Origin: an uncultured Planctomycetaceae bacterium
GTDB lineage: Bacteria; Planctomycetota; Planctomycetia; Pirellulales; Thermoguttaceae
Assembly (NCBI GenBank): GCA_964430315.1
Contig: CAYSGY010000002.1
Coordinates: 1-58,782, forward strand
Reading direction: 5' to 3'
Length of the DNA stretch: 58,782 nucleotides
In this document: one piece after another, positions 1,886-57,657 of the stretch
Layout: the number at the start of each line of letters is the position of its first letter
How positions within the stretch are numbered: position 1 is the first letter of the stretch
The notes under the pieces: model-generated
Told to the model about the DNA's origin: nothing
Databases searched by the model: none
Seen by the model: only the letters and a program-made list of their open reading frames with translations
Program-made: the position numbers and the translations under genes

Positions 1886-1942
1886 GACACGCACCCTCGA
1901 TAGTCAGGATGAAGGATTGCTGCCGGATAAGCTACCCAATTC

Positions 1943-1956: not shown

Positions 1957-1986
1957 CACCTCCCGGGGCCGTACCCGCCCGTACAG

Positions 1987-2016
1987 AAGATAATCTCCCA
2001 CGAGGAGGCGTGTCAA
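1987..2016 (-). promoter_or_regulatory. Candidate sigma70-like promoter for the C25 gene (TTGACA - 18 nt - TATCTT)
   Basis: The minus strand reads GCGTTTGACACGCCTCCTCGTGGGAGATTATCTTCTGTAC. It has a perfect -35 hexamer (2016..2011) and a -10-like TATCTT (1992..1987). The resulting 5' UTR of about 95 nt is similar in length to those predicted for the giant genes. Motif match only. Confidence 0.3.
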
Positions 2017-2065
2017 ACGCTTTCCCCGTTTTCGGAGCCGGTTGCCGTCGGGGGCGATTTCGGCG

Positions 2066-5000
2066 TTACGAGGGCGGGAAGTCCTTCGTGCTGCGGTTCT
2101 TCAGGGTGTCGTCGGCGAAGAACAGGAACCAGTCGGATCCTGACCCACCGTAGAGCACGTCGGCCGACTCGTCGTCGATGACGCCGTCGCCCTGCCTCAG
2201 GTTGATCCGCTGATCGGGGGGAAGGCCTTGGGTCAGGTTGGCCACGTGCGACGCGGGCGTGCCCTTGGCGGTCCATTCGGCAAGGATCTGGACAAGGTCG
2301 TCCGGGCTGTCATCGAAGGCTGTTTCGCCGCCGATGAGGATGTCGCCCTTCGAGCCGGCCTTCACGTTGTCGACCCCGAGGCCACCGATCAGCACGCTCT
2401 TGCCCGAGCCGCCGTAGAGCCAGTCGTCCCCGGCTCCGCCCAAGAGCAAGTCGCTGCCGCCGTTGCCGTAGATCGTGTCGTTTCCGTCGCCGCCCCGAAT
2501 GAGGTTCTTCGCCGAGTTCCCGTGGATCAGGTCCGCGAACGCCGTGCCGATCACGTTCTCCAGAGTGCCCCGCAACGCGAGGGTGGCGCCCTCGCCGAAA
2601 ACCATCTGCTTCTGGCCCGTGCTCTTCCTGAGATCAATGGAGACTCCCACCGCCGCACCGGAGAAGTCGAGCGTGTCGGTGCCGCCCTTGTCGATGATGG
2701 TCAGCGGGACGTTGAGGGCCGCGATCGCGTAGGTGTCATTCCCGGCGAGCGACTCAAAGCGGACCTGCTCGACGCCGGCGAACGTGAACTCGGTCGTGGC
2801 ATCGCCCACGGTAATCGCCGCGCCGTCCGACGAGGACTGGAAGAGGTTGTCGCCTGTCGTGCCCTTGATCACGAGGGTGTCGGAGTTCTTCGCTCCCGCC
2901 CCGCCGGTGAAGGCGACGCCGCCGGGAATCGAGGCGATCCCGCCCGCGCTGAGGGCGTTGACATCGACGGTCAGCGTGTCGGTCTTGTTGTCCGCGCCGA
3001 TCACCTCCAGAGAGTTGAGCGGCGAGGAAAGCGGCTGGCTGAGCAGGAGGTTCTTGCCGCTGAGCAATTGGACGCAGCCGGCATCGAACGTCAGGAGGAG
3101 GCTGCCCCCTCCCGCCGGGGCGTTGAGTACAGGATCCGGGCCGTACTGGACGATCGTCGTCTCCGGCTTCGATCGGAGCGTGAGGGTGTTGCCCGTGCCG
3201 AAGACCCTCTGGGACGAGGTACTGGACGGATTGACGCTCACCTGCTGGCTCGCGCCGGTGAAGTCCAAGGTATCGACCCCGCCCGAGTCGCTGATCAGGA
3301 GCGGGACGGGCAGAGCCGTCACCACGAAGGTGTCGTTCTGCTTCAACCCCTCGAAGCGGACCTGTTCGAGGCCGACGCCCTCGATCGAGACTCCGTCGAG
3401 CTCGTAGTGGTCGTCGAGAGACCGAAAGACGCTGCCGGTCGTCTGGCCGTGGAGGACCAGGACATCGCTGCTGCGCCCGGCGCCGCCGTCGAACCGCAGC
3501 CCGCCGGGAATCTCAAACGCGCCGCCGTAGTCGAAGTCTACGGTGAGCAAGTCGACCTTGTTGTCGACCCCCGTCACCGTGAGCGAATTCAGCGTGTTGG
3601 CCGGCTGCTCGCGCAGGACTGCGTTGCTGGACCTGTTGAGCAACTGGACGAAGCCGCGCGCGGCATCGAGTCGCAGCCACAGGTTGTTGGTGCCGCTTCC
3701 CGCGGGGGCCTGGACCACCGGGTCGGGATTGTAGATGACCGTGATGTCCCTGGTCTGGAGGTTGCTGTTCGCCACGCCGTCGGTCACCTGGAAGGTGACC
3801 GTGCGGGTCGACTTGATCGGGGCGGCGCTGGTGTTCCGGTACGTGACGGAACGCAACGCGGCCTGGTAGTTGCCGACCGTGTCGGTGCCCGTCAGCGTCA
3901 GCGTCCCCGTCGTGGCGTTCCACGTCCCCGTAATGGTCGCCGTGTTCGCGAACCACAGCACGTCCTGCCCGTTCTGGTAGTTGGCCGCGATCCGAATCGT
4001 GGCGCCCGCTAGGTTGGCGTGATCGGCGTCGACGGCCGTGATCGACGCGGTGATCGCCGTCGCCGGATCGCCCTCCGTGTAGACCAGGGCCGCGGCCTCG
4101 ATTCCTCCGAGCACGGGCACCGCGTTGACCTCGCTCACGTGGAGCGTCACCGGCCGGTCGGTGTTGGTCACCCCGTCGCTCACCCGCACGGAGAACGCGA
4201 AGTCCCCGGGCCCTTGCGCCTCGGTCGGCGTCCAGGTGAAGACGCCGGTCACGGCGTCGATCGCCGCCCCTGCCGGCGCTCCCACCAAGGAGAACGTCAG
4301 CGTTTGGGCCGGAAGGTCGACGTCGGTTGCATCGGCGTCGAACGTGTAGGGCTGAAGCTCCGGGATCGTCGCGCTGGCGGGAACGTTGCTCAACACCGGG
4401 GCTACGTTGACTTCGTTCACGTGCAACGTCACCGCCTGGTCGGTGTTGACCACCCCGTCGCTCACCCGCACCGTGAAGGTGTAGTCGTTCGGCCCTTGGG
4501 CCTCGGTCGGAGTCCACGTGAAGACGCCCGTCGTCGGGTGGATCGTCGCCCCGGCCGGAGCCCCCACCAAGGAGAACGTGAGGGTCTGGGCCGGCAGATC
4601 GACGTCGGTCGCATTCGCGTCGAACGTGTAGGCCTGAACCTCCGGGATCGTGGCGCTGGCTGGAACCCCGCTCAGCACCGGGGCTACGTTGACTTCGGTC
4701 ACGTGCAGCGTCACCGACTGGTCAACGTTCGCCGTGCCGTCGCTCACGCGGACCGAGAACGTATAGTCGTTCGGCCCTTGCCCTTCGGTCGGAGTCCACG
4801 TGAAGACGCCCGTCGTGGGATGGATCGTCGCCCCGGTCGGCGCTCCCACCAGGGAGAACGTCAGCGTCTGGGCCGGGAGGTCGGCGTCCGTCGCGTCGGC
4901 GTCGAACGTGTAGGCCGCTTGCTCCGGAATCGTCGCGCTGGCCGGAACCCCGCTGAGCACCGGCGCCGTGTTCACCTCGGTCACGTGCAGCGTCACCGAT

Positions 5001-25798: not shown

Positions 25799-25804
25799 GG
25801 TTCA

Positions 25805-25810
25805 CTCCTC
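25805..25810 (-). promoter_or_regulatory. Shine-Dalgarno GAGGAG of giant A
   Basis: The minus strand reads GCGAGGAGTGAACCATG, with a 6-nt spacer to the ATG. Confidence 0.7.
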
Positions 25811-25882
25811 GCTGGGGCCCTGGCCTAGTAGCCAAGCGCGATGTGAAAAGAATCCCTGTCCCGAAGAAATACGCATGCTTGC

Positions 25883-25911
25883 CTGATAGGATAAATCCGC
25901 AAATCCGTCAA
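25883..25911 (-). promoter_or_regulatory. Sigma70-like promoter of giant A: TTGACG - 17 nt - TATCAG
   Basis: The minus strand of 25920..25878 reads GCAATTTCC TTGACG GATTTGCGGATTTATCC TATCAG GCAAG. It matches the element upstream of giant B at 34 of 43 positions, including 15 consecutive nt. The -10 ends 85 nt from the ATG. Confidence 0.6.
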
Positions 25912-25920
25912 GGAAATTGC

Positions 25921-26399
25921 GCGCGCTCCAATCGGTACTGATTAAAGCTCAGAAACCCAAGAAAATCAAGCACCAACCATCGCAAGCACTACATTTTGCT
26001 TAATCAAGCTAGTTGTTCCATCTGGTGCAACCATTCCATCTTCTCATCTCAAATGCCCCGCAAGGCCGACGAATCACTGTTCGTTTGTATCGTTTCCGGC
26101 CTGACAGGCATTGCTTTCATGCGCGATGAATGCCACTTCGGGAACCACCAGTCCGAATGGCCACGGGCCACCCTTGAGGGCAGTTCCTGCCGATGCGATT
26201 TGTGATGGGGGGGACGTACTCCATCGCCCATGAAGGTCGGCGTGGTGCCGGCGTCACGGTGCGGTGATTCGCCCGATGGAAAACACGAAGAGTGGAGAAT
26301 GTCAGGGCCATGGGTCGGATGTGGAAAATATGTGATCTGAGGGGTATGGGGTTGATTTTCCTGACATTTCGAGTTTTAATCGAACCGTCTGGGTTCTCT
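25921..26399. other. AT-rich (about 43-50% GC) non-coding core between the two mirrored promoters
   Basis: I hand-counted 47% GC for 25921..25980 and 43% for 25981..26040, against roughly 65% in the flanking coding DNA. It contains only short ORFs with atypical composition and several short inverted and direct repeats (TTCCATCT twice around 26016..26040; GGCATT..AATGCC at 26106..26133). Confidence 0.6.
26298..26368. promoter_or_regulatory. Split 14-nt inverted repeat upstream of the giant-B promoter
   Basis: The right arm ATTTTCCTGACATT (26355..26368) is the exact reverse complement of AATGTCAGG (26298..26306) plus GGAAAAT (26323..26329). The left arm is interrupted by 16 nt. It sits 41-111 nt upstream of the -35 hexamer of giant B, and no counterpart is seen on the giant-A side. 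Confidence 0.4.
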
Positions 26400-26408
26400 G
26401 CAAATTGT

Positions 26409-26437
26409 TTGACGGATTTGCGGCTTTCTTCTATCAA
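26409..26437 (+). promoter_or_regulatory. Sigma70-like promoter of giant B: TTGACG - 17 nt - TATCAA
   Basis: Plus strand 26400..26442 reads GCAAATTGT TTGACG GATTTGCGGCTTTCTTC TATCAA GACAG, the mirror copy of the giant-A element. The -10 ends 90 nt from the ATG. Confidence 0.6.
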
Positions 26438-26513
26438 GACAGGAACGGACAGAGAGTACGCGCCCAGGCCGTCTTTGGCTGTTTTCGCCGGGGGCTGGCC
26501 TGCCGGTTTCTCC

Positions 26514-26519
26514 AAGGAG
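26514..26519 (+). promoter_or_regulatory. Shine-Dalgarno AAGGAG of giant B
   Basis: CCAAGGAGTCACTCGATG, with a 7-nt spacer to the ATG at 26527. Confidence 0.7.
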
Positions 26520-26526
26520 TCACTCG

Positions 26527-53500: not shown

Positions 53501-56500
53501 ACGACGGCGGCACCGGCGGCCTCGGCGGCAATGGCGCCCAGATCGGCTTCTACTCGGGCGTGGCCGACGCGTACTTGAACGTCATGCGGCCCGACAGCCA
53601 GGCGGACCTCGACCTGCTCGTCTCGCAGCCCCAGGGGCAGTTGACCTGGCGGTTCGATCCGACCACCGGCCTGCCGGGACGCACGGAGACCGGTCTTGCG
53701 GGCGTCCAGGTGTACCTCGACATGAACGAGAACGGGCAGTGGGACACCGGCGAGCCGATCACCACCACCCAGAAAGACGATCCGACCACCGATGTCAACG
53801 AACTCGGGTACTACGAATTCGCGGACAACTGGCCCGGCCGGTACACCATCCGCGAGATGGTGCCCCTCGGGTACGAGCAGACGGCACCGATCGACGGCTA
53901 CTATTCGGTCTTCCTGAGCCAGCCGCACCAGCCGGGCAACCCGGAGGAAGGCCCGGTCCTGGCCGACGCGGTCTTCGGCAATCACAAACTGGCCCAGTTG
54001 ACGGTCTCCCCGGCCACCCGGAACGTCGGCGAAGGCGACACCGGCGAGCGGACCCCGGTCGTCGTGGACGTGACCATGACCGGCTCCTTCGGCGCGGATG
54101 TGACCTTCACCTACGAGGTGAACGACGGCACCGCCACCCGGGCCGACAACGATTACGAGGGCACCGGCGGTACGGTCACGATCGGCGCCGAATTGACGCC
54201 GGAGAACCAGTGGACCTACGACGATCTCGGCGCGGCGGTCGCGGGCAGCAGCTACACGTACGCCCTGTCGGGCAACGTGACCGCCTGGTACCGGTACGTC
54301 GACACCACGAACACGCAGGTGTTCGTCAACATCTGGTATCCGGAGACGCAGACCGACGACACCTTCCAGATCAGTTCGAGGGCCGGGGAAACCCAGACGA
54401 CGGCGAACGCCGATATCGCCGTCTACTCCTACACCGACGGCGCCGGCCAGTCTCAGTTCTACGTAACCTGGGCCGGCAAGGTGGTCGGATCGGGCGTCTA
54501 CACGGTCTTCCTGTACGATTCCGCCACCGACAAAGTCAGTTCCATCAACACCCTGGCCGGGAGGGTCAGCACCTACGATCAGAGAAGTCCGCAGGTCTCA
54601 GGGACCTACGTGACCTGGGCCGAGCAGACGTCGACCGGGCGTCGCGCGATCTACACCTACGATCTTGCGACGAAGGCGGTCACGAAGATCTCCAACGACC
54701 TGTTCGACAACACCATCCCGCAGATCGACGGCAGCACCATCGTATGGACCGGGAAGGCCACGTCGGCCTCCGAGGTCTTCGTCTACGTCACCGACCCCAG
54801 CTACGGGACCGTGGGCCGCAGGCGGCTGACCAATGACGGCCGCGAGGACAGCTCCCCGCAGGTCTCGGGCGGAAACGTGGTCTGGCAGGCCAACATCAAC
54901 GGCAAGTGGCAGCTCTACCTCTACAATCTCAATAGCGCCACGACGACGGCCGTCACCAGCGACGCCGACTACAGCAACATCACCCCGCAGATCTCCGGAA
55001 ACAACCTCGTCTGGACGAAGATCTACCAGCCCGCCAGTGGGACCTCCACCTCGGCGATCATGTACTACGACATCAGTTCGGGGAACGTCACGCGGGCGAA
55101 GGCGATCTCCACGGGGCCCTGGTCGCTCAACGAGAGTCCCAGCATCGAGGGCGACTCGATCGTCTGGACCATGTACGACGGGGCCAACTGGCAAGTGGTC
55201 TACTACGAGGCCGGCGCCGGGCAAATGGCCCACAACATCTCGTTCGACTTCTCCAACGCCAACTACCACACGAAGCCGCTGGTTTCGGCCGGCGACACGC
55301 CCGTCGTCGTCTGGCGCGAGCAGCAGGGGAGCAGCTCGAGCTATCGAGTGGTCCGTGCCACCCCCACCCCGTTCAAGATCACAAAGAACGTCACGACGAC
55401 GATCATCGGAGACGACAGGGGCGAGGACGACGAGAACTTCTTCGTCAAGATCACCGGCGCCACCCTGGCCACCGTCGACCAGCCCGCCGACGGCGCAAAG
55501 ATCGTCATCGTCAACGACGACACCTGGATCGTCACGGGCAGCACGGGCGACGATACGTTCACCTACAACATGGTGGACGGCACCATCACCCTCGAGAACG
55601 CCGGCGGCACCACCACGTTCCCGTTCGGCCGCAACTACACCTTCGACGGCAACGGCGGCAACGACAGGGTCGTGTTCATCGGTCCGGAAGGCGGTGTCCC
55701 CGTCATGGTCGAGCTGTGGCAGAGCCACGGCGACTACTACGACGCCAACGGGGCGCTGCTCACCACCAGCGACGTCGACATCCAACTCGCCATCAGCAAT
55801 GGCGACCACGATACGGCGATCCTCCACGACACCGCCGGGAGCGACACCTTGACGGCCTCCCCGACGGTTGTCGAGTTGAAAGAATACGTCCGCGGAGTGA
55901 CAACCGACTACTACGAGCGGGTCGAGGGCTTCCGCACCGTGACCGCGCATGCCAGCGGGGCGCTTCCGGACAGCGACGATCCGGCCGACACGGATTCCAA
56001 CGACCGGGGCGATTACGCCTTCCTCCAGGATTCCAGCGGCGCCGACCTCTTGGTCGCCAAACCTCGCAACACCATGCTCTCGGACGTCAACAACGAAATC
56101 TACTCGGTGCAGGCCCTCGGGTTCCCGACGGTCCAGGCGCGTGCCACGGCCGTCAGCGGCGTGGTCGACCGGGCGGAGTTCGAGGGATATGATTCCGCGA
56201 CGGGCACCAGCGCCGTGTTCTGGGGCCGCCCCGGGAGCGCGGCGTTCTCGCCGGAGGGCGTGCCGGGGGCCACCTGGTTCGCGAACATCGCCCAAGGCTT
56301 CGGCGATGTCGAAGCGTCGTCCAACCGGAGCGACGATATCGCCCGGCTCTTCGGCTCCACCGGCGACGACACCTTCACGTCCGACTCGTCCGCCGCCACC
56401 CTGGTGAGCACGGTTGGTGGGCTCTCGTACACGTCGAAGGCCAACGCCTTCCGCAAGGTCTACGCGACCGCAACGGCGGGCGGCACCGATACGGCCACCA

Positions 56501-57657
56501 TGATGGATTTGTCCACCGGCGTCGACATCTTCGTCGGCAAGCCGGCCAGCGGCACCTTCACCGGCGGGGGCTTCCTGGACCGGGCCACCGGCTTCGGCTC
56601 CGTCACTGCCGTCTCGGCGAAGGGCGGCAACGACATCGCCAAGCTCTTCGACTCGGCAGGTGCGGACACCTTCGTCGCCAACCCGACCTCGTCGAGCATG
56701 ACGGGAACCGGGTTCGCCAACACGGTAAACAACTTCGCCCAGGTCATTGCGGCGGCCACCGCCGGCGGCTTCGACACGGCCGATCTCCACGGCTCCGCGG
56801 GCACCGACCGGTTCTGGGCCTATCCCGACTACGCCTACCTGCAGGGCACCACGCTCGACGGCCACACCTACTACTACCGCGCCAATACCTTCGAGCAAGT
56901 CGTCGGGCACTCCAACGGAGGCGAAAACGACATTGCCCAGCTCTACGGACGCGAAGATGCCGCGGACAAGCCCGATACCTTCGTCGCCGGCGCCTACTGG
57001 CGGCCGGGCGGCAGCACGAACCCCGTGACCCGGGCGGTCATGTCCGACGGCGACTACGACGGCTCGGATATCCGCGTCGATACGGCGGATCCCTCCTCGG
57101 CCCTGGCCGCCTTCTCCGATTTCTCGTACCTCGCCCTGGCCGAGGGCTTCCACTCGGTGGTGGGTATGTCCCGGGATACCACCGAAGCGGCCAAGAACGA
57201 CATCGCGAGGATCTTCGACTACGCCGACGGGGCCGATACGTTCACCGGCAGCCTCTCGTCCGGCATCGGCCGGATGACCGGCGACGGCGCCTACTCGATC
57301 AACGTGAGGTACTTCCACGGAGTTGTGGCCACCGGCGACGGCGTCAACGACACGGCGATGCTCTACGACTCGTCGGCCAAGGACGCGGCCCTGGTCGACT
57401 GGCTCGAAGTCGACGGCGACAACCATCGCGCCCGGTTGTTCAACACGACCAACCCGGCTGTCCTCAATGAGATCTTCGAGGTCCACGACTTCGCCAACGT
57501 GCGGGCAAAACTGGCGGATGCGGCCGTCACGACGCGGGTCAACCGCCGGCACGTCGCCAGCACGCCTTCCGATTGGAGCATGGCGTACGATCCGAGCGAG
57601 GCGGCCTGGAAGGACTTCGACGAGACCGATCCCACTTGGGGCCTGGACTGGCTGTAA
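26527..57657 (+). CDS. Giant multidomain extracellular/cell-surface protein B (10,376 aa): leader motif, Ig-like, degenerate metzincin site, PPC domains, beta-helix regions, TolB-like propellers, lectin-like modules, 9 GEVED modules (3 with nested propellers), 2 NIDO-like domains, SdrD-B-like, split Calx-beta, degenerate C-terminal repeats
   Basis: Uninterrupted 31,131-nt ORF ending in TAA at 57655..57657. The start is supported by AAGGAG and by the MGIW N-terminus shared with giant A. It is collinear with A for most of its length. Domain signatures are listed separately. Confidence 0.95.
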   Translation: MGIWKNLFRRIATQSGTRGQSFGKRGWHAKRDYAKPRGLRMEQFEARMLLSIEPPALVGIIPKEGQILQDGDKLTEAPTELLLRFNVGQTIDTQSLASGIQLVRSGGDGKFAGESGNTSPDVVVPIGWMGVERTDVPNEITVRFAETLPDDSYRLNLYGTARTDLFGTTGRAIPLQNTDSPPKQLNGGRDEVHPFSINVGALVTSVVPEPVTHVALSDSTSAYSLLDVAGNGTSVNGKQFTVSRGTTSVTFTYTTGTASETNIKIASGDSAAAVATKTRDAINAYTVSHPAFGVSVDSTVAVNPATGLLSRLTLRGGAVVPKVDVKSTGFTFVESQLAQAKDTIDVYFNDDQLMQSSAETVSHYSLFALKDVGNPDDDLVAILSVAFANPASLDGKAFTVTNGDPSNTDTFTFTTTLPLTDTVHQIYVDTALPDTPATIAAKIASKISDHPSLGVIATSSTEPSSAYKVALNGGVTVPEFANVTTAFTFTKGPVQPADVDYDPVRNVARLKFAFPLDAYSTGTFRLRIGDDYQTITTTTYTVPGSDNPDTDQNYSSFWTAYDLAPTIQVSGTGSSLVGKTFTVNGTTFTFTATAVNPTDIAVNSGDDAAKVAAKVAASLNSNIAAFQGKTVSKDARVVLLGATGSPTVGVGATGFLYTPQTWFDGTSSQSVVITASIQPKASTSSLSSNSSTAPGTRDLVDSTPLSGETAEDHYADDADYDGNLAGSADVTPGVVTKTYYFPTYYGQYPSGNQLRNEILDHPDQMQRAREIMELYGKELGIQFVEVESGVLGAGDIGIVTGDPRVIDPNVPTNGANAIGGIAGYGLAIMNNGVNWGTSEFGGTWFVTAMHEVGQLLGLGHSYDLAGFSVMGSDEQGLQTSDISLDAVFPGDSDVVAGQYLYQPDSNDIDLYTFQLSQAGTFSAEVIAERLAQASTLNSLLTLYDSSHQVIARNDDFYSRDAALELHLQPGRYYIAVTASGNDDFNPKIADSGTGGTTQGEYDLRLTFQPDRTTINSTIVDSDMTALDGDGDGLPGGSYNFWFNVQSYDYTDGDSSNDHVLFVDKTPSQGRGVASATYPLGSLNNPYPTIFAALQAAKSGDLFHPGDIVRIVGNNDADDNLGRSILTKNASGQAITGVMLSTGGTHTFTLADESQTMTFQFVKQGDTLGSGNIAVPYSPTDNSAANVLQAVVDAINNEAHLNRGLNITAAAVSGTSEIRLTGRAVFFDANTSTLTDTMLNNVAYEVGTNPDGGHLADSDPDPTADVSQLRVPKGVTLMIDGGAVFKMGGANIVVGTSESDNDRSGGALQVLGTPESRVIFTSYKDESIAVDTFTGPATKPVKGDWGGIVFRNDLDYEAMTSDPTRRVYETAGVFLNYVNHADIRYGGGKVGGSSGDPYDPIHMVRARPTITYNSITRSGDAAMSADPNSFEETRFQSASQASSTAYTSDYNRAGPYVQGNFVADNTMNALYIRIRKDPLSGTVLDTLDVSARLDDLDIPYVLIQKLVISGNPGGIVEEAGTCSLEVQNRNQIVAKAGDAFLDPRDYVQDQDYFTISDGFVTVVFEFDARPDPSSSPGFNYNNSPELDASGHRVLIPFGASFNRTQIADKVRDAIRFARENFRLNVTPDAAGTAIVTLAGPTVILDGFQGLETARTHGRLMLDPGVVLKLRSGMIETEMGGQLIAEGTKNSPVVFTSLYDDRYGAGGTFDTNNDGMFDAFAPARIGAAPAKGDWAGIYVSPTSTLSLDWARVYYGGGFGSIEGRTVYFNPIEIRQASARITNSLFQDNDAHSTGTDTRNGRGTTDAATIFIRGAQPVVVYNTFLNNTGAVASVDLNAMKAEVTPDWGRSVPYFLTNTSEIPSEEIRNEQLRTPLAPFYQFDDNAGPLVRLNQYNENAINGIVVRGGTLTTDSVWDDTDIVHVVTSEIIVDNQYSGNALRLQSTSEESLVIKLQQIPVATLASRTGDTAGVLRFDAADHGLAVGRSVDVAWTGGARYSMTVTAVSGSNVTVSGGKGDVLPEAAARISFAAGFVVRGTPNDTSGRIGGTLQVLGQGTHPVVFTSLADDTVGAGFIPGVARVPQTDTNGDGSATTPQPGDWQAIRIEEYSNDRNVAIVSELEPPASASASQTNDTKNTRQLLGTLATSVSSGDDLLRLGFQVNGHIRDDYAGDVDVYSFLGKPGTEVWIDIDRTQFALDTVVELLDSQFNIVAWSDDAGGATTTDKIAEQGKPGETIPNHGIARTMQRGSSVIPDYYSTNPRDAGFRVVLPGNLNLSQDTYYVRVRAALKGLAAPQGTTVKDGDYFTLGDGVRTVFFEFNNSTLVAGDPGYNQVTAGRVRIDFNPNDSAETIAKAITNAINGANAGASGKLGITAQTVDQSIVLTRDATFSARTGLAAPTTMRFDRGTSSVAKTNPTGSYQIQIRLQELQEAPGTVISHGDIRYAAVGIEVLGQPTSSPLTGDSSDIEERSATSHGNNQNNNVLTQSQPIGDVLASDNAALTVGGYINGETDIDCYQFTIDLQGIQSLTPTGQVNDGGTRWPVTFDVDWAGSTLSRADTSLYIFDSQGRLLLIGTDSSILDDQAAGGQGGAQEELSRGSSDTLDPWIGPVYLPENYNTADMPTQGPYTVVVAPKYRIPSVLLENTSDADARLLRREPVNSIQRIIDDHIGYSNYSGIAQDAVTSAFPVDNSDNQSYQGYDSSKVLQLNAYADDFTLGDVTTYIVRGNSSNTDNIYTVNPFTGAAQVDLTNLQYFSDAGTRLYSDVGVRNDGRLYTLSYGSPSGNTTSGLHWNNSGNARQTEPGYEAPTTVSGVSDTGVFPGEYDMGAADPRNAARNIPNASMQFQAFSQDPYTSSVYVGNTSRYQVAVGSSASTPQNPGGTYRMPYYQNLFYVLNSGGVAVDAPNNFRWAPYSAGGPRLYSNIVPLGVLTFADDNMPGDQSAIGDPGDGYYTDGDTYIGSPIVGMTYVNGRLYAITQDPVTYTPDAEFTIRGEDGTGDEVKAGSYNLFEVINVTGADADGDILYRLMNDFTASSTSWNWGFYGVDSNITPKTIQRRKVNDVGVGPRLKPVGLISTNAGTGLTGLTTGPQNVENGKYSEMMFATDSSGRIYAMDIHGTLQGVFQNGATSVSTGISGATGIAFSNIDYNLWHVTEQRWYDEGHGVNTLWDSSRTSEEYSQGGAYGDSRGMSFYFGLEDSRNTNTISSQPGSQNYQDVSSYIWQDRSAGPTSPVAYTSGGTHGSYDMPSGAKGSLTTAEFSLGGYQAADKPVLYFNYYASTQGGQDYDAFRVYVSSDGANWDLVGSTTDMDSNRPNSTATAGTNQEVRWNGGQELYENTGWRQARIDLSNYAGQEHLQIRFDFNTYSDWQIGDLSQGGDYLRAVDGDYLRDGNWFDVQTGGTSGVIDRFEFDMGLSLVMPNVAGKMITDEGPTLLESFRITDDGQAPNAAKTWTFQFYNMKSGSLPTPPANTTYIPISASDSAYDVAVKVRDAINSQFVSGNTGYTMAVLDSVHPDRIYLNRAVSVVQTAGPDGNTRVIVQGDAPGTLTNTAGGSVSTVVPIRVRGDMTEEEIAQAIWLAMDQKYTNPTLVNTLPNPSQNGQHYGTDLIQVLPTQQPVNGSLQRNYTDGQTFTVGDRYRTITFEFDSSPRTSGLWNHDNVRIGIEPDATNNFLGPDAETLAARIAKAIELAHVTESTYDAGTDYWYTGVGGPSLQLTPTATGRITSNADPDTQDPSYQSGSSWVKVKTLGFYVRLTGTAAESATNYPAAFFNPGTTLLSQPFANAASKREGLTTAGYSNTLSTAANGSLIRMIGHRVVTTLPEIEALPSTNPPGGDPAALVGGPAPLGYSSLLYSDDPLYKDFWHNGVSPLNQRFTNYLGASQNYYEGIYIDDIIVGFAERGEMVSSAESSASYMAPADASFVAQPTQTRYDTTYNAGRDPQTAINTGYYQVEIRRAEEFASYAPYASVNRERTAILGSTTSSGVVEGLTRTFNTNDRFVDGAFTLVAPAAGEITHGDTFQISDGVNKQTFQFRDPTRTGDGAIGIPIYFNGHENSVQMAEKIIEALNNQTLSKIKGLGIITDTTQGHVLGLGSNRITLLGATWVSGIEFIAYGDSVEPMATDENPTDASSATNLYNTSSSEDRMPAVNPDTNAAHQLMAVARDTDGDGNYDIYLVDLSTGTEGQDKLFTVDGTSTQLGRLTMTGNAIGGQLPAGVLHGGDNRDPVFSRDGKYLMWVSNAYDPVNNPEGKYQLWEAALTWDTSVPSLLTLSAPVQLTFDAANHREPSYHWKDSNKIVYSSNLWDPTKNTTRDYEIFLADIDRTGTPKLKAGTVTQLTTNEYDERSPQYSPDGSLVVYVANRYDAIQNPESFYQVFTLPVAGGTPTQRTFDRADHRSPSFNQSVSTNLLYDFGKNDLSTIAEGYTMVTASTAYTTASGYGWQTLPGDMQSVDRGTGSTSSKLVRDFVRTADGTFVADMPNGFYSVTVTLGDIGSTGLQDAANIYLEGTLVDTTFQPGAGTTLLRTYQVYVADGQLTLQITDAGGSVGYVAVDSVIVAAAPFSVGFVDINGNPVAENYTYDAGGTSLTYAKTLTTWNYYPGTPYNATTYGQNGDNYEIFSQSFTGTTTLIPNGRRTNDDGRDVEPVVVVSQPVVTGPFQDPDNPNWQDYRVTIDTNYYFASDRDGDYDIYKETYTYVYLYKVDAGNIVRQVRVSQTSSTTQITTDEDVTGNTTALTSDFNATADHTFLVDLPNGAYNVTLTLGDLGAQARDLMAVSLEGTQVDVVNTAAGTLATKTYPVVVTDGQLTLRLADLGGLDPNVAIESLVITSAESAAQPAIRFDFGRDTSSVAAGYTGVADTTIYNAALGHGWEDGVGSPVTSIERNVSSGRDDLTRDFNATDDGTFAVELANGTYDVTITVGDSGSQARDQMGIYFEQGEAGQQVDWFSTAAGQVLTKTYTVSVSGGRLEVRLLDMGGSDPYVSIQSLVVSGSPSTAYDFGTATSAVATGYTRVTENTLYTATAGQDFGWLTKPDVSQGGAVFSADRGVANTQKQKSTTWIPMTEGDSNTLRDQGQIIIDGNQVTHSLTWGIVVDSQDARVESQADNDAANWPHPGSTLPLRVPNDLRLVPGVTVSNNVVAYTQNASGGAILVSGDTNANNAPLGAVPFARIVNNTLYGPQSGAAAGTGIRVEQNASPTLLDNIVSHFTTGIQVENSAICNTTYISGSLYKGNTTNLSAPGLITPQYDAISLGASDPLFVDPANGNFYLLEGSKAIDSAQAQVGERSAMSAVRSPLGIPDSAIYSPEYDLFGQKRVDDPWTDNAGSGRSAYNDRGAIDRVDFVRPTSALADPADVTDALNIDRNKGDQDPTADDVTVIGQNLTQFVIQLYDQGVGIDDRTLDPAAGVDPNDVLTVSKIDPLTGLATLLTLATGTTQGDFYYSYNATNDAITLSPAKGVWDANTQYRIEFVLDPATGKSRVMDLAANPLMHNRVSGQTLFNILIYGLDYGDAPDSPITPPGVSPPWTYPTLKKDNGAAHVTTGVLWLGDTVNGETDALQDPLAQGDPSDDGVTFSSNFLIGGSPTFTVTATMPSAAAGDYAGLLNVWVDWDRNGDFNGANEHWIVDQALNVGDTVFNDPNDAASPKFQVPNGLEEGGTFVRFRFSTEAIALPTDRADDGEVEDYYIRLTKYAEDFGDAPDANYHTSFNPAGTWTGPRHAVVAAPTWMFDFGVGDPTPSPLATGYARVTSSTVYGGVGTYGWRSTGNPITGGTNASGNEVTGDFNSTTDRTFLVDVPDGTYSVTLTVGNLAATLQDTADIFLEGILFDSITPPDNETVTRTYQVSVTDGQLTLRLLDTSGVTGVAIDGLVVAAMPDGAIVANPLLALGSVVDSEMDGQPSADAKGDDAVAAGAVDDEDGVKFFTAFQPGIDATIEVTINSQFTTADSDGNHATLNAWIDWNGDGDFLDDGEQVIRDNHNLTLAGNPLIPATIIHGLTTTQLTIHVPAGAQEGATFARFRLSGPGETGLGPDGVLTTGPRAGDAPFGEVEDYALTVLADPYDYGDAPDGAAVPFSFGGASYDVTYPTLKDNNGPRNSYDYRFHLGPDVDYERDANVSASNPGSSDLADDGVLFTTYGSTPDSIILRAGVENQMQVTFVNTLGVTGYFNAWIDYNFDGTFGDYASGEQLFASPVQVTASGSQVFTFTVPEGVQSRPITFLRTRFTTDAAGATPTGPDTGVPPKGEVEDYRVAIEASPIDYGDAPASYDTVSAEGAGAGSVYDPNFYLGSYVDFESAPLSSSDALGDDNTVGGTYRWQESAAANDPNKVKSFDFGTAASPVLSGYVGVTNVSLYSGLVGYGWQAANAGRTSVDRGVAPGRTDMTRDFNRTVVDTFLVDVVNGTYDVTVTVGDVLSGSDVDTLLDFEAGQVTSTITVGAGSTQTQTFRVNVSDNQLTLRLGSSLGPIVAIDGLVVTLVSPQTDDNGVTLSNAYLSDPTVTLLAGGVTNTLTLDIHNPTTNALDGSARTPTTPWVTVWIDYDRDGSFGNSDSPYQEKIVGPYNDNGTWKNWNYTTGEEITDLTQPIEFVVPWYIPFDNVGTPPADAAFLRAWLADAPDAVAGTDFPKGEVEDYQVVIRQPAVDFGDAPDDAATPQYPTLDIHDPADAGTTNNRGARSVVDATFCLGARVDAETDGQPDAAATGDDLVPLAGPNDEDGVKFAPNYGSTWDYGSTTGTAILRAGVDNTIVVEVTVPAGRTGYLSAWINYNANSATPDSDWSDAGEQLFADLASTVGTGADYRVEATATGYRYTLTVKPAWDTAVGDTFMRFRFSDIQGVGADGGGPGDALPVGEVEDYRVTIMAPPLDWGDAPDYQGFPGESLNPDYNATNGLIVYATNNYDPAGNPGQNWQIFVANPDGTGKRQLTFGTADSQTPRFSRDGKKIVFSSNGNFTGQNADGDFELFVMNIDGSGLKQVTRNAVPDVDPEFMDDHRVVYASQKLSGTQDFDLWIVDTAVTNPTPTAINTSDLFNGDDRMPSYDPINNLVAFVHTDSVISGSQGWEIGYTRLDMPGFYLTYTSGLGATDQFWPRYSADGSQLLFVSNHVGGNFEVFTRGLGTNTAVTQLTFTTTDDETTPAWIDFGTILYASDAIGYNQIYSQPTASQTPVQLTLPAANPIWTYPTVAASNGPSALYSPDFCLGARSDYELDGNPNADATGDDVTLGDTATGPATAPYDDEDGVTITSYGGALEAGADDNVIEVIVRNATGVDAYLNAWVDFNGNGMFDEDPALGEKILADELVGGSAAWTRVGDTYTGRFTITVPWNYGGPQARDTFMRFRLTEDNARDNVATGPAAGDEPKLGEIEDYKVTIRQTGVDYGDAPDDYPYPGEAETPDYNSSANLVVFSSTLYHPTDNPTQNREIFVSRPDGSGRVQLTFSDADCIHPRFSRDGTKIVFSSNGNLTGQNANGDYELFVMGIDGSGLRQVTNNAVDDKYPDFMDNQRIVYSSMTLKATGSSDYDLYIIDSSVTNAVPTAINTGALWDRDDIMPSYDPVKNEVVWVANYEIIPGTSGLNVLITRLDTPGFRLDLTGSLGASNELWPRFSPDGSLVMFTSNTSLTSYEVYTMNTLGSSVVRRTTSPADEISSAWINATTMLYAAETSGVSQVYRQVFGSATPTQVTSTYRDPQLVYPTLDRLAADTTSYPYDGRGARNTADAALTLGRIVDAESNGQPTDGANGDDNNPVAGPDDEDGVQSLSYLGSGTITVRNGVANTIQVQVTNTTGNDAYLMAWLDLNMDGDWNDTVDGVSETVLPETVVTSSAGLTTVEFTITPWWDGDTGDSYLRVRLSDRPFDADPAVATSGSGIGDADGGRLPHGEVEDYRVSILPPAYDYGDAFDESNLIGGALNPDYNATADLVVFSANLYDAVNNPEGDYEIFTIRTDGTGLTQLTFNSYDDVTPRFNSGGTRIVWSGNVPSGASSRYQLFTMNADGTNPVQLTSTALYNNVDPDFMDANRIVFASDRGGFSTYDIYIYDSRTPAVPTQLTNTPGYDERMPSYSAVKNQLLYVADDGKGTGKDIWLDTFNFAGGGSNWLRNITADWNDSIVSDEVWPRFSDDGNTILFSSDHNNGNFELYTTDWFGTWFGSQRQTVSEANEIMGEFVGTTGYLFASNESGSYQIYAMPAGGSATQITFPYAPPRGNYPTLSTNNGAVALYDPGFHLGEYVDFEDEALPNDTATGDDENAGGTTSGVPVPAPGDEDGITFEVYDSGTGLPILHSGIANTITVKVVNTGGTTGYLNAWLDFDGNGSWGDTLHAGTAWEASEHVLVNEYLGTTSQDAIELTITVPWYLTGKDTFLRFRLTEAAIPDTILDGYAGTASTLDGGRQPIRGEVEDYLVTIAAPTVDFGDAPDGVTPLPDRPVSTYPTRDYSTGSYTDSYTGRGARSLVDATSPYLGGGVDFETDGNTNGYADGDDTTDIDDEDGVRIVSHDGLLRIYQPDRPVAESTNTLEVIVNGDGYLNIWIDYDFDGNFTGAGEQLVLNNSIWDPIAGVYTPLTLATDGTVNSIDFLTPSGVEAHYSFMRVRYTDRADVGPDGGGAADNQLLLTRGEVEDYAVTLVRPSARISGYKFDDNNADGMWNSSPTGAIPPIQLATSGSVLAISGADEGSYAVALPFSFEFYGQSYTQMYANANGNVTFGLAQRDNAPIGFTQDLPMLAAFWGDVDMTGTGEVRVTTGNSVRNQPFVQVDWIDVGYYDGHTDLVNNFSLYIEDDPAGDIVSFVYHDMQWTTGDSGKTGMPDGVGGFGDTGALVGFDAGDGAGFRTVARPASAAELAAMERTYSWRFDSVTGQPGPANPGSGVSDVDLVGADTAAFAAANDDNSTSFLSLGFIFEFYGVGYQSVSISNNGYVSFGSSVGYKMPVGFSALNDPSLAIVAPFWADVNTQLNAGNVKYQLGTTPDGHRYLEVDWNNVGYYNGGTGGAKDKTDTFSLYIEDNPTGDIVVFSYSAMNWTTGSYDGGTGGLGGNGAQIGFYSGVADAYLNVMRPDSQADLDLLVSQPQGQLTWRFDPTTGLPGRTETGLAGVQVYLDMNENGQWDTGEPITTTQKDDPTTDVNELGYYEFADNWPGRYTIREMVPLGYEQTAPIDGYYSVFLSQPHQPGNPEEGPVLADAVFGNHKLAQLTVSPATRNVGEGDTGERTPVVVDVTMTGSFGADVTFTYEVNDGTATRADNDYEGTGGTVTIGAELTPENQWTYDDLGAAVAGSSYTYALSGNVTAWYRYVDTTNTQVFVNIWYPETQTDDTFQISSRAGETQTTANADIAVYSYTDGAGQSQFYVTWAGKVVGSGVYTVFLYDSATDKVSSINTLAGRVSTYDQRSPQVSGTYVTWAEQTSTGRRAIYTYDLATKAVTKISNDLFDNTIPQIDGSTIVWTGKATSASEVFVYVTDPSYGTVGRRRLTNDGREDSSPQVSGGNVVWQANINGKWQLYLYNLNSATTTAVTSDADYSNITPQISGNNLVWTKIYQPASGTSTSAIMYYDISSGNVTRAKAISTGPWSLNESPSIEGDSIVWTMYDGANWQVVYYEAGAGQMAHNISFDFSNANYHTKPLVSAGDTPVVVWREQQGSSSSYRVVRATPTPFKITKNVTTTIIGDDRGEDDENFFVKITGATLATVDQPADGAKIVIVNDDTWIVTGSTGDDTFTYNMVDGTITLENAGGTTTFPFGRNYTFDGNGGNDRVVFIGPEGGVPVMVELWQSHGDYYDANGALLTTSDVDIQLAISNGDHDTAILHDTAGSDTLTASPTVVELKEYVRGVTTDYYERVEGFRTVTAHASGALPDSDDPADTDSNDRGDYAFLQDSSGADLLVAKPRNTMLSDVNNEIYSVQALGFPTVQARATAVSGVVDRAEFEGYDSATGTSAVFWGRPGSAAFSPEGVPGATWFANIAQGFGDVEASSNRSDDIARLFGSTGDDTFTSDSSAATLVSTVGGLSYTSKANAFRKVYATATAGGTDTATMMDLSTGVDIFVGKPASGTFTGGGFLDRATGFGSVTAVSAKGGNDIAKLFDSAGADTFVANPTSSSMTGTGFANTVNNFAQVIAAATAGGFDTADLHGSAGTDRFWAYPDYAYLQGTTLDGHTYYYRANTFEQVVGHSNGGENDIAQLYGREDAADKPDTFVAGAYWRPGGSTNPVTRAVMSDGDYDGSDIRVDTADPSSALAAFSDFSYLALAEGFHSVVGMSRDTTEAAKNDIARIFDYADGADTFTGSLSSGIGRMTGDGAYSINVRYFHGVVATGDGVNDTAMLYDSSAKDAALVDWLEVDGDNHRARLFNTTNPAVLNEIFEVHDFANVRAKLADAAVTTRVNRRHVASTPSDWSMAYDPSEAAWKDFDETDPTWGLDWL
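26635..26679 (+). other. Leader motif RGLRMEQFEARMLLS (residues 37-51 of giant B)
   Basis: Preceded by MGIWKNLFRRIATQSGTRGQSFGKRGWHAKRDYAKP and followed by IEPPALVGIIPKEG, which starts the Ig-like region. Confidence 0.7.
28726..29244 (+). other. Metzincin-like domain of giant B with a degenerate zinc motif (HEVGQLLGLGH)
   Basis: Residues 734-906 align with the giant-A protease domain (YYFPTYYGQYPSG...WFVTAMHEVGQLLGLGHSYD). His850 is encoded at 29074..29076 and Glu851 at 29077..29079. The position of the second zinc-ligand His is Gln854 (CAG, 29086..29088). The third His, His860, is at 29104..29106. Confidence 0.75.
29245..29547 (+). other. PPC-like domain of giant B
   Basis: Residues 907-1007: DIDLYTFQLSQAGTFSAEVIAERL...LLTLYDSSHQVIARNDDFYSRDAALELHLQPGRYYIAVTASGN...GEYDLRLTF. 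This is the direct counterpart of 23474..23776 in A. Confidence 0.65.
38990..39710 (+). other. TolB-like (PD40) beta-propeller region of giant B (core copy)
   Basis: DTDGDGNYDIYLVDLSTG, DPVFSRDGKYLMWVSNAYDPVNNPEGKYQLWEA, EPSYHWKDSNKIVYSSNLWDPTKNTTRDYEIFLADID, SPQYSPDGSLVVYVANRYDAIQNPESFYQVFTLPVAGG. Confidence 0.65.
39720..41635 (+). repeat. Cluster of lectin-like (malectin/CBM-like) modules specific to giant B: two full copies, one N-truncated copy and one C-truncated copy
   Basis: Full copy 39720..40170: YDFGKNDLSTIAEGYTMV...GYGWQ...VRDFVRTADGTFVADMPNGFYSVTVTLGD...VADGQLTLQITD...VAVDSVIV. N-truncated copy about 40650..40985: SDFNATADHTFLVDLPNGAYNVTLTLGD.... Full copy 41005..41466: RFDFGRDTSSVAAGYTGV...GHGWE...TRDFNATDDGTFAVELANGTYDVTITVGD.... 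N-terminal half only at 41477..41635: YDFGTATSAVATGYTRV...FGWL.... Giant A has no counterpart at this position. Confidence 0.5.
41730..42210 (+). other. Parallel beta-helix repeats of giant B (counterpart of 15150..15700 in A)
   Basis: GNQVTHSLTWGIVVDS...GVTVSNNVVAYTQNASGGAILVSGD...ARIVNNTLYG...GTGIRVEQNASPTLLDNIVSHFTTGIQVEN. Confidence 0.6.
43660..44100 (+). other. Lectin-like module nested in GEVED module 2 of giant B
   Basis: MFDFGVGDPTPSPLATGYARVTSSTVYGGVGTYGWRS...GDFNSTTDRTFLVDVPDGTYSVTLTVGN...VTDGQLTLRLLDTSGVTGVAIDGLVV. It is at the same host position as 13305..13750 in A. Confidence 0.5.
45460..45900 (+). other. Lectin-like module nested in GEVED module 4 of giant B
   Basis: KSFDFGTAASPVLSGYVGVTNVSLYSGLVGYGWQA...TRDFNRTVVDTFLVDVVNGTYDVTVTVGD...VSDNQLTLRLGSSLGPIVAIDGLVV. 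It is at the same host position as 11600..12020 in A. Confidence 0.5.
47110..47990 (+). other. TolB-like propeller nested in GEVED module 6 of giant B
   Basis: The host reads DWGDAPDYQGFPGESLNPDYN [insert] LPAANPIWTYPTVAASNGPSALYSPDFCLG. The insert contains LIVYATNNYDPAGNPGQNWQIFVANPDGTGKRQLTFG, TPRFSRDGKKIVFSSNGNFTGQNADGDFELFVMNIDGSGLKQVT, WPRYSADGSQLLFVSNHVGGNFEVFT. Confidence 0.65.
48650..49525 (+). other. TolB-like propeller nested in GEVED module 7 of giant B
   Basis: The host reads DYGDAPDDYPYPGEAETPDYN [insert] TYRDPQLVYPTLDRLAADTTSYPYDGRGARN. The insert is roughly 80% identical at nt level, by eye over a sampled stretch, to the module-6 insert (48803..48990 versus 47275..47460). Confidence 0.65.
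50190..51060 (+). other. TolB-like propeller nested in GEVED module 8 of giant B
   Basis: The host reads DYGDAFDESNLIGGALNPDYN [insert] FPYAPPRGNYPTLSTNNGAVALYDPGFHLG. The insert contains LVVFSANLYDAVNNPEGDYEIFTIRTDGTGLTQLTFN, TPRFNSGGTRIVWSGN, WPRFSDDGNTILFSSDHNNGNFELYT. Confidence 0.65.
52459..52938 (+). other. NIDO-like domain 1 of giant B
   Basis: LPFSFEFYGQSYTQMYANANGNVTFG...LPMLAAFWGDVDMTGTGEVRV...VQVDWIDVGYY...NNFSLYIEDDPAGDIVSFVYHDMQWTTGD...GALVGFDAGDG matches the nidogen-type NIDO pattern as I remember it (F-x-F-Y-G, N-G-x-[VI]-[ST]-F, A-x-F-W-x-D-V-D, W-x-x-V-G-Y, F-S/Q-x-x-[IL], G-F-x-x-G-D-G). Confidence 0.65.
53086..53592 (+). other. NIDO-like domain 2 of giant B
   Basis: LSLGFIFEFYGVGYQSVSISNNGYVSFG...LAIVAPFWADVNTQLNAGNVKY...LEVDWNNVGYY...DTFSLYIEDNPTGDIVVFSYSAMNWTTGS...GAQIGFYSG. 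Confidence 0.65.
53692..53900 (+). other. SdrD B-like (Cna-B-type) domain of giant B
   Basis: GLAGVQVYLDMNENGQWDTGEPITTTQKDDPTTDVNELGYYEFADNWPGRYTIREMVPLGYEQTAP. A related start, RISGYKFDDNNADGMWNS, precedes NIDO 1 at about 52330. Confidence 0.6.
53988..55520 (+). other. Calx-beta domain of giant B interrupted by a ~390-aa beta-propeller (insert about 54200..55365)
   Basis: N-part: LAQLTVSPATRNVGEGDTGERTPVVVDVTMTGSFGADVTFTYEVNDGTATRADNDYEGTGGTVTIG. C-part: KNVTTTIIGDDRGEDDENFFVKITGATLATVDQPADGAKIVIVNDD. Between them are about seven blades with the signature P-Q-[VI]-[SD]-G-x-x-[VI]-V-W...[IV]-[YF]-x-Y-[DN] (SPQVSGTYVTWAEQ..AIYTYDL, IPQIDGSTIVWTGK..VFVYVTD, SPQVSGGNVVWQAN..LYLYNLN, TPQISGNNLVWTKI..IMYYDIS, SPSIEGDSIVWTMY..VVYYEAG). 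Confidence 0.6.
55800..57400 (+). repeat. Degenerate ~50-60-aa repeats at the C-terminus of giant B
   Basis: Recurring D-[IT]-A-x-[LM]-[FYH]-[DG]-S-x-G-x-D-[TR]-F ... G-F-x-x-V-x-A: DTAILHDTAGSDTL, DYAFLQDSSGADLL, DIARLFGSTGDDTF, DTATMMDLSTGVDIF, DIAKLFDSAGADTF, DTADLHGSAGTDRF, DIAQLYGREDAADKPDTF, DIARIFDYADGADTF, DTAMLYDSSAKD. There are no canonical GGxGxD nonapeptides. Confidence 0.6.

Follow-up and report, generated by a model that had tools for sequence, protein, structure and literature searches.

Head-to-head giant genes of an uncultured Planctomycetaceae bacterium as probable ancient paralogues of a widespread family of giant exported proteins

Two giant genes, here called A and B, lie head to head in a stretch of 58,782 nucleotides from an uncultured Planctomycetaceae bacterium (contig CAYSGY010000002.1; ~65% guanine plus cytosine, GC); the whole of this stretch is referred to below as the window. 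A and B are true paralogues, and we consider it reasonably probable that they are anciently diverged members of a family of giant, exported, multidomain proteins that is widespread in Planctomycetota, and not a purpose-built pair. Their open reading frames (ORFs; Table 1) diverge from a 728-bp spacer and together occupy 93.3% of the window, in agreement with an earlier note on this DNA, which had described two uninterrupted giant ORFs over about 93% of it. The GC content at third codon positions (GC3) is 0.84-0.95 in each 500-codon bin of A and B alike. A contig from another assembly, L006 (relatives from metagenome contigs are labelled L006 to L083), is 97.3% identical in nucleotide sequence to window positions 12019-30997 and shows the identical divergent junction. 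On that contig, the frame of A stays open over 4,593 codons and that of B over 1,490 (to the contig end), and all indels are in frame. With ratios of non-synonymous to synonymous substitution rates (dN/dS, Nei-Gojobori) of 0.28 (A) and 0.16 (B), both are functional genes under purifying selection.

The paralogy of A and B is apparent from a series of collinear BLASTP blocks: A1-378/B1-379 (48% identity), A450-1254/B663-1525 (47%), A1242-1536/B1648-1950 (55%), A1540-2812/B2026-3357 (41%), A2811-3345/B3848-4380 (27%) and A3360-5075/B5054-6861 (44%). Over the greater part of the N-terminal ~5,000 residues of A, identity is thus 41-55%, with a single block at 27%, and B carries additional inserts of 76-674 residues relative to A. 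Iterated hidden Markov model searches find exactly nine GEVED modules in each protein, the last ending at residue 5934 in A and 8593 in B, and up to this point the domain order is identical. The C-terminal parts beyond the GEVED arrays are unrelated, since the comparison of A with B gives no significant similarity there (top match E = 0.013 over 58 residues). The pairwise comparison called for in the earlier note therefore upholds what had been read from the letters, namely a shared MGIW start, leader and domain order through the ninth GEVED module (near residues 5,930 and 8,590) followed by unrelated C-termini.

Beyond this common plan, A and B have diverged in ways relevant to function, i.e., in the zinc site of the N-terminal protease domain, intact in one and degenerate in the other, and in their unlike C-terminal halves. 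The site of A (HELGHNLGFVHD, residue 621) reads HELGHNLGFVH and fits the HExxHxxGxxH pattern, whereas that of B (HEVGQLLGLGHS, residue 850) reads HEVGQLLGLGH and does not, the second His being gone. All members in the alignment have a Met (..T[AI]MG..), a putative Met-turn, 13-14 residues past the position of the third His. In an AlphaFold model of A residues 438-1260 (mean predicted local distance difference test score, pLDDT, of 61; domain cores 75-90), the metzincin domain is matched by Foldseek to MMP-8, MMP-12, MMP-13 and karilysin, with template-modelling (TM) scores to the target of 0.62-0.68, E ~1e-4 and a local pLDDT of ~80. The PPC-type sandwich is matched to the ColG CBD and a B. 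anthracis PPC domain (TM 0.55-0.67). Further along the head, profile searches match A 2050-2812 to designed propellers in the PDB (E = 2e-6), and find no relatives of A45-440 or A1250-2050 among the PDB sequences of solved structures.

The head defines a large family. A word-indexed protein search with A1-1250 returned 14 relatives, and the resulting idea of a rare family was overturned by a pattern scan of metagenome contigs, in which 355 stretches encode relatives of the protease region. Among species-representative genomes, a scan located just two loci, both distant. From these, 78 loci were kept (L006-L083), which hold 83 family ORFs. The members are usually giant, since 73 of the 83 extend beyond the DNA that was retrieved and 49 have an open frame of 4,000 residues or more; they share the first ~2,800 residues of A. 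The closest named relatives are proteins from metagenome-assembled genomes of Planctomycetota, Thermoguttaceae, Pirellulaceae and Planctomycetaceae. The zinc-site consensus of the family is AMHEIGHxLGLGH. Of the 83 ORFs, 51 have the complete HExxHxxGxxH motif, 6 have HExxH alone and 26 have lost the motif; pseudo-protease heads have therefore arisen repeatedly. On a 1.16-Mb contig (contig_19285, L003), the homologous region at positions 1-24281 consists of more than 15 consecutive same-strand ORFs with PPC, GEVED, cadherin and dockerin matches; it resembles a giant gene fragmented by indel errors of a long-read assembly, or a pseudogene.

The duplication that gave rise to A and B is old. In bit scores, the locus L007 is closer to A (3,382) than to B (2,197), and L008 is closer to B (4,827) than to A (1,959). 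Neighbour joining (563 columns; 100 bootstraps) likewise groups A with the corresponding L006 ORF and L007 (100%) and B with the minus-strand L006 ORF and L008 (100%), places L011 in the B clade (100%) and makes the two clades sisters (77%). Because A-type and B-type proteins each group with their own orthologues at full support, the A/B split predates the divergence from the other organisms. Although a single metagenome is the source of both L007 and L008, they lie on separate contigs, neither with a gene of the other type upstream. The earlier proposal of an inverted duplication followed by sub-functionalisation is therefore retained as regards paralogy and divergence (zinc site, C-termini) and set aside as regards a recent, local inverted duplication. 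Mapped on the same lineages, the zinc site is intact in L011, lacks one His in B and two in the B orthologue L008 (HEIGTLLGLGQ), whereas the A clade, including L007, keeps all three. The site thus decays stepwise in the B lineage, and the presumably dead head is therefore an inherited, selected trait of the B-type orthologue group.

The head-to-head arrangement itself is specific to this lineage, and may have arisen here or been lost elsewhere. Among the 59 loci that have at least 3.5 kb of upstream DNA and are thus informative, a divergent second family member is present in one, L006, which is the source lineage itself. The synteny check suggested in the earlier note was in this way run on metagenome loci, and the dedicated two-member system proposed there is not borne out. 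In L007, the A orthologue has unrelated genes upstream. In L008, the B orthologue is divergent from a 1,660-residue S8 subtilisin (2264-7243, minus strand) that has a leader of the class found on A and B and an A-like C-terminus; B-type giants are thus, in both genomes, placed opposite a protease that ends in an A-type tail. The sole other two-copy locus, L077, has two members in tandem on the same strand (5676-6587 and 15714-16661, ~10 kb apart), from which it follows that local duplication in the family is not confined to one orientation.

The spacer between A and B contains two nested inverted repeats, I1 (37 nt, 84%) and I2 (39 nt, 72%), which correspond to two copies of one upstream module. 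The module consists of TTGATT-17-TTTAAT, a palindrome AATCG-N3-CGATT that overlaps the -10-like box, and then a TTGACGGATTTGCGG-type TTGACG-17-TATCA. It is conserved before L007 (~6880-6960), L008 (~7540-7620), L011 (~4000-4075) and L050 (~6030-6100), and partly before L010, and it is far better conserved than the coding sequence. A structured 5′ leader RNA was considered and rejected, because RNAalifold gives the module merely -9.2 kcal/mol with negligible covariation and an Rfam scan of the window finds no RNA family; DNA-level promoter or operator elements are preferred. A sigma-70 scanner finds no site in the spacer, since the -10-like TTTAAT breaks its rule of an A at position 2. The module is likely a promoter plus operator for some regulator, inherited by every member of the clade of A, B, L011 and L050. 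Co-regulation of A and B is therefore plausible, yet not special to the pair.

In their distal parts, the two proteins part company. The stalk of A is visible in the DNA as a repeat at 4120-7505, with a period of 282 bp, 12.0 copies and ~79% identity between copies. B has more galactose-binding-like (lectin-like) modules than A, and its Calx-beta domain has an E-value of 4.7e-6 that lies at the Pfam cut-off itself. In Pfam and NCBIfam searches, the modules listed in the earlier note were recovered, i.e., the metzincin site, 12-unit cadherin-like stalk and RTX tail of A, and the degenerate protease site, extra lectin-like modules, propellers, NIDO and Calx-beta domains of B.

Both proteins end in reusable cassettes. 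The tail of A matches HemolysinCabind (E = 1.7e-11; 44.3 bits against a cut-off of 23) and Peptidase_M10_C, with serralysin-type matches. The last ~600 residues of A (two 195-residue repeats, RTX nonapeptides and tail) are 37% identical to the C-terminus of the L008 subtilisin, which also contains three copies of the module at A 5942-6102 and is the only other occurrence of the A tail in 1.44 Mb of loci. The last 737 residues of B form ~11 D-rich repeats of ~48 residues ('GGxDxAxLYDSxGDDTFxAxP...') ending in ...WGLDWL, the family end being '...G.W'; they match nothing in Pfam, NCBIfam or PDB sequences and give no nonapeptide match. The same module is found on S8, C25, CAP, M36, trypsin-like and calpain-like proteins, including P0135, a planctomycete C25 peptidase of 1,207 residues, and is C-terminal in 41 of 56 matches. 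When HMMER is run exhaustively, 4,100 cluster representatives match at E <= 1e-3, and 2,108 still do so at E <= 1e-30; the carriers include leader-bearing giants of 4,613-7,237 residues. Among the 56 matches, a strict regular expression finds the leader in 7, and by eye the motif is present in most of the full-length ones. The AlphaFold model of the B tail is an all-beta solenoid (pLDDT 77.6; predicted TM score 0.75) which, among PDB structures, is matched best by the RTX blocks of the adenylate cyclase toxin CyaA (E = 9.5e-6, probability 0.94). The tails of A and B, unrelated in sequence, are probably analogous Ca-binding beta-rolls. The B tail is a candidate new domain family, a predicted RTX-like beta-solenoid found mainly at the C-terminus of planctomycete enzymes and giants that bear the leader.

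At the other end, A, B, the flanking C25 peptidase described below, their orthologues and unrelated proteins bear a common leader pattern, in which a basic stretch is followed by LR.E..E.R.LL[AS]. Among the unrelated carriers are P0012, two subtilisins (P0013 and that of L008) and giants bearing the tail of B. The start MG[IVF]W is found on most leader carriers of this clade and is absent from the C25 peptidase and the L008 subtilisin. A motif RRLxxExLExRxLLA has been proposed as a Planctomycetes-specific export signal of cell-surface proteins; in Tuwongella immobilis, it occurs on 8 of the 10 longest proteins (4,016-10,566 residues), and the leader-bearing proteins are enriched in the SDS-soluble envelope fraction (PMC8567305). 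By eye, the leaders of A (RGLRLERCEERTLLAI) and B (RGLRMEQFEARMLLSI) fit this consensus. Since the leader also sits on unrelated proteins, the shared MGIW start is no evidence of a gene pair, and the view of MGIW and leader as the mark of one is not supported: they recur on other family members, the leader (LE..E.R.LL) also on a subtilisin and the C25 gene, and the signal is a published one (PMC8567305).

Altogether, A and B are each preceded by a separate copy of the conserved, promoter-like upstream module, and each gene encodes, in order, a leader, a head of ~2,800 residues (metzincin, PPC-type sandwich, beta-rich regions, propellers) and nine GEVED modules with galactose-binding-like domains. 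The remainder of each protein consists of a distal part specific to the lineage and, at the C-terminus, a reusable cassette. A has kept the full zinc site, with ~12 cadherin-like repeats and a canonical RTX block, while B and its orthologue have lost zinc ligands and B has gained propellers, NIDO and Calx-beta domains and a predicted RTX-like beta-solenoid tail. A and B look like exported or surface proteins: the leader would direct the export of both, and they may be held at the cell surface as long Ca2+-stiffened fibres, with which their D-, T-, G- and N-rich composition, 0.1% Cys and lack of a transmembrane segment fit. There, the head and the lectin-like modules may capture polymeric substrates or surfaces, such as protein or glycan, which A would also cleave, B being a putative non-catalytic binding variant. 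The D-rich beta-roll tails would fold on Ca2+ outside the cell and may aid retention or export. The head-to-head layout would be a property of the lineage, allowing at most co-regulation via the shared upstream module.

Several points weigh against this reading. The cover by the second assembly ends at residue 4593 of A and 1490 of B, so that residues 4594-7910 of A (the distal 40%, including the repeat stalk) and 1491-10376 of B (85%) are without its confirmation. The metzincin scores in Pfam lie below the gathering threshold (Reprolysin_5, 22.5 against 27; Peptidase_M10, 16.7 against 24), the model of the head is moderate (pLDDT 61) and the Foldseek TM-scores of the B tail are low (0.15-0.30). 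PF07595, the Pfam leader model, does not match A or B even at E <= 10, and its match to the C25 leader is weak (15.6 bits against a cut-off of 25.5, E = 0.014); the leader assignment therefore rests on the motif and the literature. Finally, no hydrophobic segment, LPXTG or PEP-CTERM was found in A or B, and, with no anchor identified, surface retention is something that we infer.

A different view is that A and B form a dedicated, co-regulated surface system in which the C25 peptidase would process and BBP7 would export or anchor the giants. These are the only other genes in the window. Pfam agrees with the earlier identification of the flanks as a C25 peptidase with a leader and an outer-membrane barrel. 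The window C25 ends at residue 628, its C-terminus lying outside the window, and BBP7 is a planctomycete-typical family. We regard this view as unlikely. In its favour, mirror copies of the conserved module precede A and B, which makes co-regulation plausible, and the pair is retained in the related strain L006; moreover, the neighbour divergent to the B orthologue in L008 is again a protease that bears the leader and resembles A at its C-terminus, the C25 peptidase has a leader of the same class, and the planctomycete C25 P0135 bears the tail cassette of B. A single spot check of an anammox genome (L084, P0027 context) also found a C25 gene ~3.5 kb downstream of that for a cadherin-rich protein of >2,820 residues. 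Against these stand the one divergent pair in 59 informative loci, in the same lineage, the unrelated genes upstream of the A orthologue L007, a duplication that predates speciation and an upstream module that belongs to each clade member singly. As for the neighbours, tblastn of C25 and BBP7 against all related loci gave no match, a weak test as these loci cover the N-terminal ends of the giant genes and rarely reach their 3′ ends. The C25 homologues are <=40% identical and scattered over many phyla, the C25 gene is preceded by a promoter-like site of its own and BBP7 and B are convergent, so that the earlier picture of a processing and anchoring neighbourhood is not sustained. An almost identical counterpart of the promoter-like site of C25 (GTTTGACA-N17-GATTATCTTC) precedes the subtilisin of L008 (~7380-7410), and a second promoter type may be common to leader-bearing proteases.

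A wider proposal, to which we give as little credence as to the dedicated system, is that the leader plus a D-rich beta-roll tail (the RTX block of A or the solenoid of B) would constitute a Planctomycetota-specific route of export or surface display for hundreds to thousands of proteins, from hydrolases to giants of 7,000-10,000 residues. Under this proposal, a dead B-type giant would work with a divergent, active, A-tailed protease, i.e., A in the window and the S8 subtilisin in L008.

The giant RTX adhesins LapA, SiiE and MpIBP are secreted by type 1 secretion systems (T1SS). It could be supposed that A, and perhaps B, is an adhesin of this kind, exported C-terminus first by an ABC/MFP/TolC-like machinery, its N-terminus being an outer-membrane retention module and not a signal peptide; we hold this to be slightly less likely again. 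The canonical C-terminal RTX repeats of A with their serralysin-type beta-roll, the RTX-like solenoid predicted for the B tail, and the want of a classical hydrophobic core in either leader speak for it, and the size, repetitive Ca-binding stalk and very low Cys content are typical of such adhesins. However, T1SS genes are absent from the window, B lacks nonapeptide repeats, and neither a LapG-type protease nor homology to a retention module was seen. The conserved leader on both A and B also argues against membership, as it occurs on ordinary-sized enzymes and is an N-terminal export signal in the literature (PMC8567305).

It is improbable, too, that A and B are released as giant soluble enzyme or binding complexes that scavenge polymers, without retention by the cell. 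No anchor motif or transmembrane segment was found, the leader and tail cassettes are common to many secreted hydrolases, and a protease head is combined with a middle part rich in carbohydrate-binding-like modules. Yet GEVED and cadherin-like stalk arrays are typical of cell-attached fibrillar adhesins (PMC10952558), the leader-bearing proteins of Tuwongella are enriched in the envelope fraction mentioned above (PMC8567305), and proteins of ~1 MDa would be very costly to shed. Least of all do we believe that one or both ORFs are an assembly artefact or a decaying pseudogene: the assembly is probably metagenomic, A contains 3.4 kb of tandem 282-bp repeats and the homologous L003 region is split into many same-strand ORFs, whereas the GC3 is uniform over both ORFs, the second assembly is open with in-frame indels only, the dN/dS is 0.16-0.28, most relatives are likewise open for >4,000 residues, and a collapse of repeats is unlikely because the copies are just ~79% identical.

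Table 1. Features of the window, with positions numbered from its first nucleotide
Feature	Position	Strand	Basis or remarks
C25 (gingipain-type) cysteine peptidase gene, 5′ part, 628 codons	2..1885	-	Runs off the window start; Peptidase_C25 E = 5.2e-55; leader ...RLESLEQRTLLAV
Promoter-like site of C25	1987..2016	-	TTGACA-18-TATCTT; consensus match; 180-bp gap from A stop to C25 ATG
Gene A	2066..25798	-	Giant exported multidomain protein (predicted); A-type paralogue; 7,910 codons
C-terminal cassette of A, residues 7310-7910	2069..3871	-	Two ~195-residue repeats, RTX nonapeptides, ~90-residue tail
Stalk of A, residues 6082-7259	4022..7555	-	~12 tandem 94-residue repeats of cadherin/He_PIG/Big_9 type
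Nine GEVED modules of A, residues 3901-5934	7997..14098	-	Interleaved with galactose-binding-like (AGA-YXIM_GBD) modules
TolB/PD40-like beta-propeller of A, residues ~3050-3350	15749..16651	-	Domain searches
Conserved beta-rich head of A, residues ~820-2812, including beta-propeller	17363..23341	-	Family-defining; common to many metagenomic giants
PPC/collagen-binding-type beta-sandwich of A, after the protease domain	23429..23776	-	Foldseek; PF04151 on homologues
MMP-like metzincin catalytic domain of A	23804..24256	-	HELGHNLGFVH at residues 621-631 (nt 23906-23938), then conserved Met
Conserved N-domain of A, residues 45-440	24479..25666	-	Family alignment; no Pfam, NCBIfam or PDB-sequence match
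Leader of A, residues 1-52	25643..25798	-	MGIW, basic stretch, then RGLRLERCEERTLLAI; no classical hydrophobic core
Upstream module of A	25884..25978	-	~-86 to -180 from ATG; TTGATT-17-TTTAAT, palindrome AATC-N-GATT, TTGACGGATTTGCGG
Upstream module of B	26343..26436	+	Mirror copy of that of A; ~-91 to -184 from ATG
Gene B	26527..57657	+	B-type paralogue; 10,376 codons
Leader of B, residues 1-54	26527..26688	+	MGIW ... RGLRMEQFEARMLLSI
Degenerate metzincin domain of B	28744..29226	+	HEVGQLLGLGH at residues 850-860 (nt 29074-29106); second zinc His lost
TolB-like propeller of B (residues 4198-4395), then B-specific galactose-binding-like expansion (residues 4400-5040)	39118..41646	+	
Nine GEVED modules of B, residues 5590-8593	43294..52305	+	PD40 propeller inserts at residues 6859-7100, 7358-7640, 7879-8140
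Two NIDO, SdrD_B-like and Calx-beta domains of B, residues 8663-9219	52513..54183	+	NIDO E = 3e-32
Methanosarcina-type beta-propeller repeats of B, residues 9250-9620	54274..55386	+	TIGR04275 E = 6e-24; blade motif visible
C-terminal cassette of B, residues 9640-10376	55444..57654	+	~11 D-rich repeats of ~48 residues, ending ...WGLDWL
BBP7-family putative outer-membrane beta-barrel gene, 3′ part	57835..58782	-	Runs off the window end; BBP7 E = 1.9e-14; convergent with B

Long antisense ORFs are also present, at 26434-37716 (-), 12680-20239 (+), 38437-45042 (-), 48679-53985 (-) and 47-1903 (+), the longest of 3,760 residues. They were rejected as genes because their codon-position GC is the mirror signature (~0.9 at first positions, GC1, and ~0.58 for GC3), which marks them as composition artefacts of a GC3-rich coding strand; they risk misleading gene callers.

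The Planctomycetes-specific N-terminal signal (PF07595, Planc_extracel) is reportedly associated with the name of Studholme 2004, and planctomycetal giant genes with that of Reva and Tummler 2008. The locus adds no novel kind of system, the kind of protein being already known. Planctomycetal genes of >20 kb and >30 kb are documented, with predicted roles in adhesion or carbohydrate binding (PMC5177795), and leader-bearing proteins of up to 10,566 residues have been published (PMC8567305), so that the view that no system of this kind has been described is not supported. A and B resemble these giant surface proteins in phylum, in a leader within the first ~60 residues that by eye is of the RRLxxExLExRxLLA type, in predicted surface exposure, in size and in their Ca-binding, Ig-like and Calx-beta-type repeats. 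They differ in the MG[IVF]W leader start, the head-to-head paralogues, the failure of PF07595 on A and B, and the metzincin head of ~2,800 residues, which is unmentioned in PMC8567305 and PMC5177795, no literature search having been aimed at it.

GEVED is a stalk or partner domain of fibrillar adhesins (PMC10952558). Like these CshA-type proteins, A and B join functional domains to stalk arrays of GEVED, cadherin-like, He_PIG and Big_9 type and would have evolved by domain shuffling; unlike them, they have no detected CshA_NR2 and no LPXTG anchor, belong to a Gram-negative-type host, interleave nine GEVED modules with lectin-like modules and propellers and are an order of magnitude larger. The C-terminal cassettes are candidate anchors only. 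With the giant RTX adhesins, A shares a length of several thousand residues, a repetitive, Cys-poor, predicted Ca-dependent make-up and a C-terminal RTX block, whereas the window has no adjacent T1SS genes, the leader is of an N-terminal export type, the head is a protease domain and B has no nonapeptides. The head of A recalls karilysin and MMP-like metzincins and the collagenase PPC/CBD, both in fold scores and in its HExxHxxGxxH motif with downstream Met, yet the domain here is part of a protein of ~0.8-1.1 MDa, scores below threshold in Pfam and has lost its site in 26 of the 83 ORFs, that of B among them. Giant genes of Omnitrophota and other uncultivated bacteria are, in a preprint, proposed to serve cell-wall degradation by predatory bacteria and likened in size to the ~40,000-residue titin; they too are very large, metagenome-derived and multidomain, and belong to another phylum (bioRxiv 10.1101/2023.11.21.568195).

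In Planctomycetota, giant surface proteins with the leader are recognised but functionally blank. To these, the locus contributes a well-resolved example with two complete architectures and a datable duplication, together with an inherited loss of the protease site under purifying selection and evidence for exchangeable C-terminal cassettes. For annotation, its value lies in a metzincin-headed family of ~2,800 residues and in a C-terminal repeat family of at least 4,100 clusters, the B copy of which has no match in Pfam or NCBIfam. The points of modest interest are thus the metzincin-headed giants, the inherited, putative pseudo-protease state of the B group, the predicted solenoid cassette of the B tail and the upstream module, which, as a conserved promoter- or operator-like element, would offer a handle for finding the regulator.

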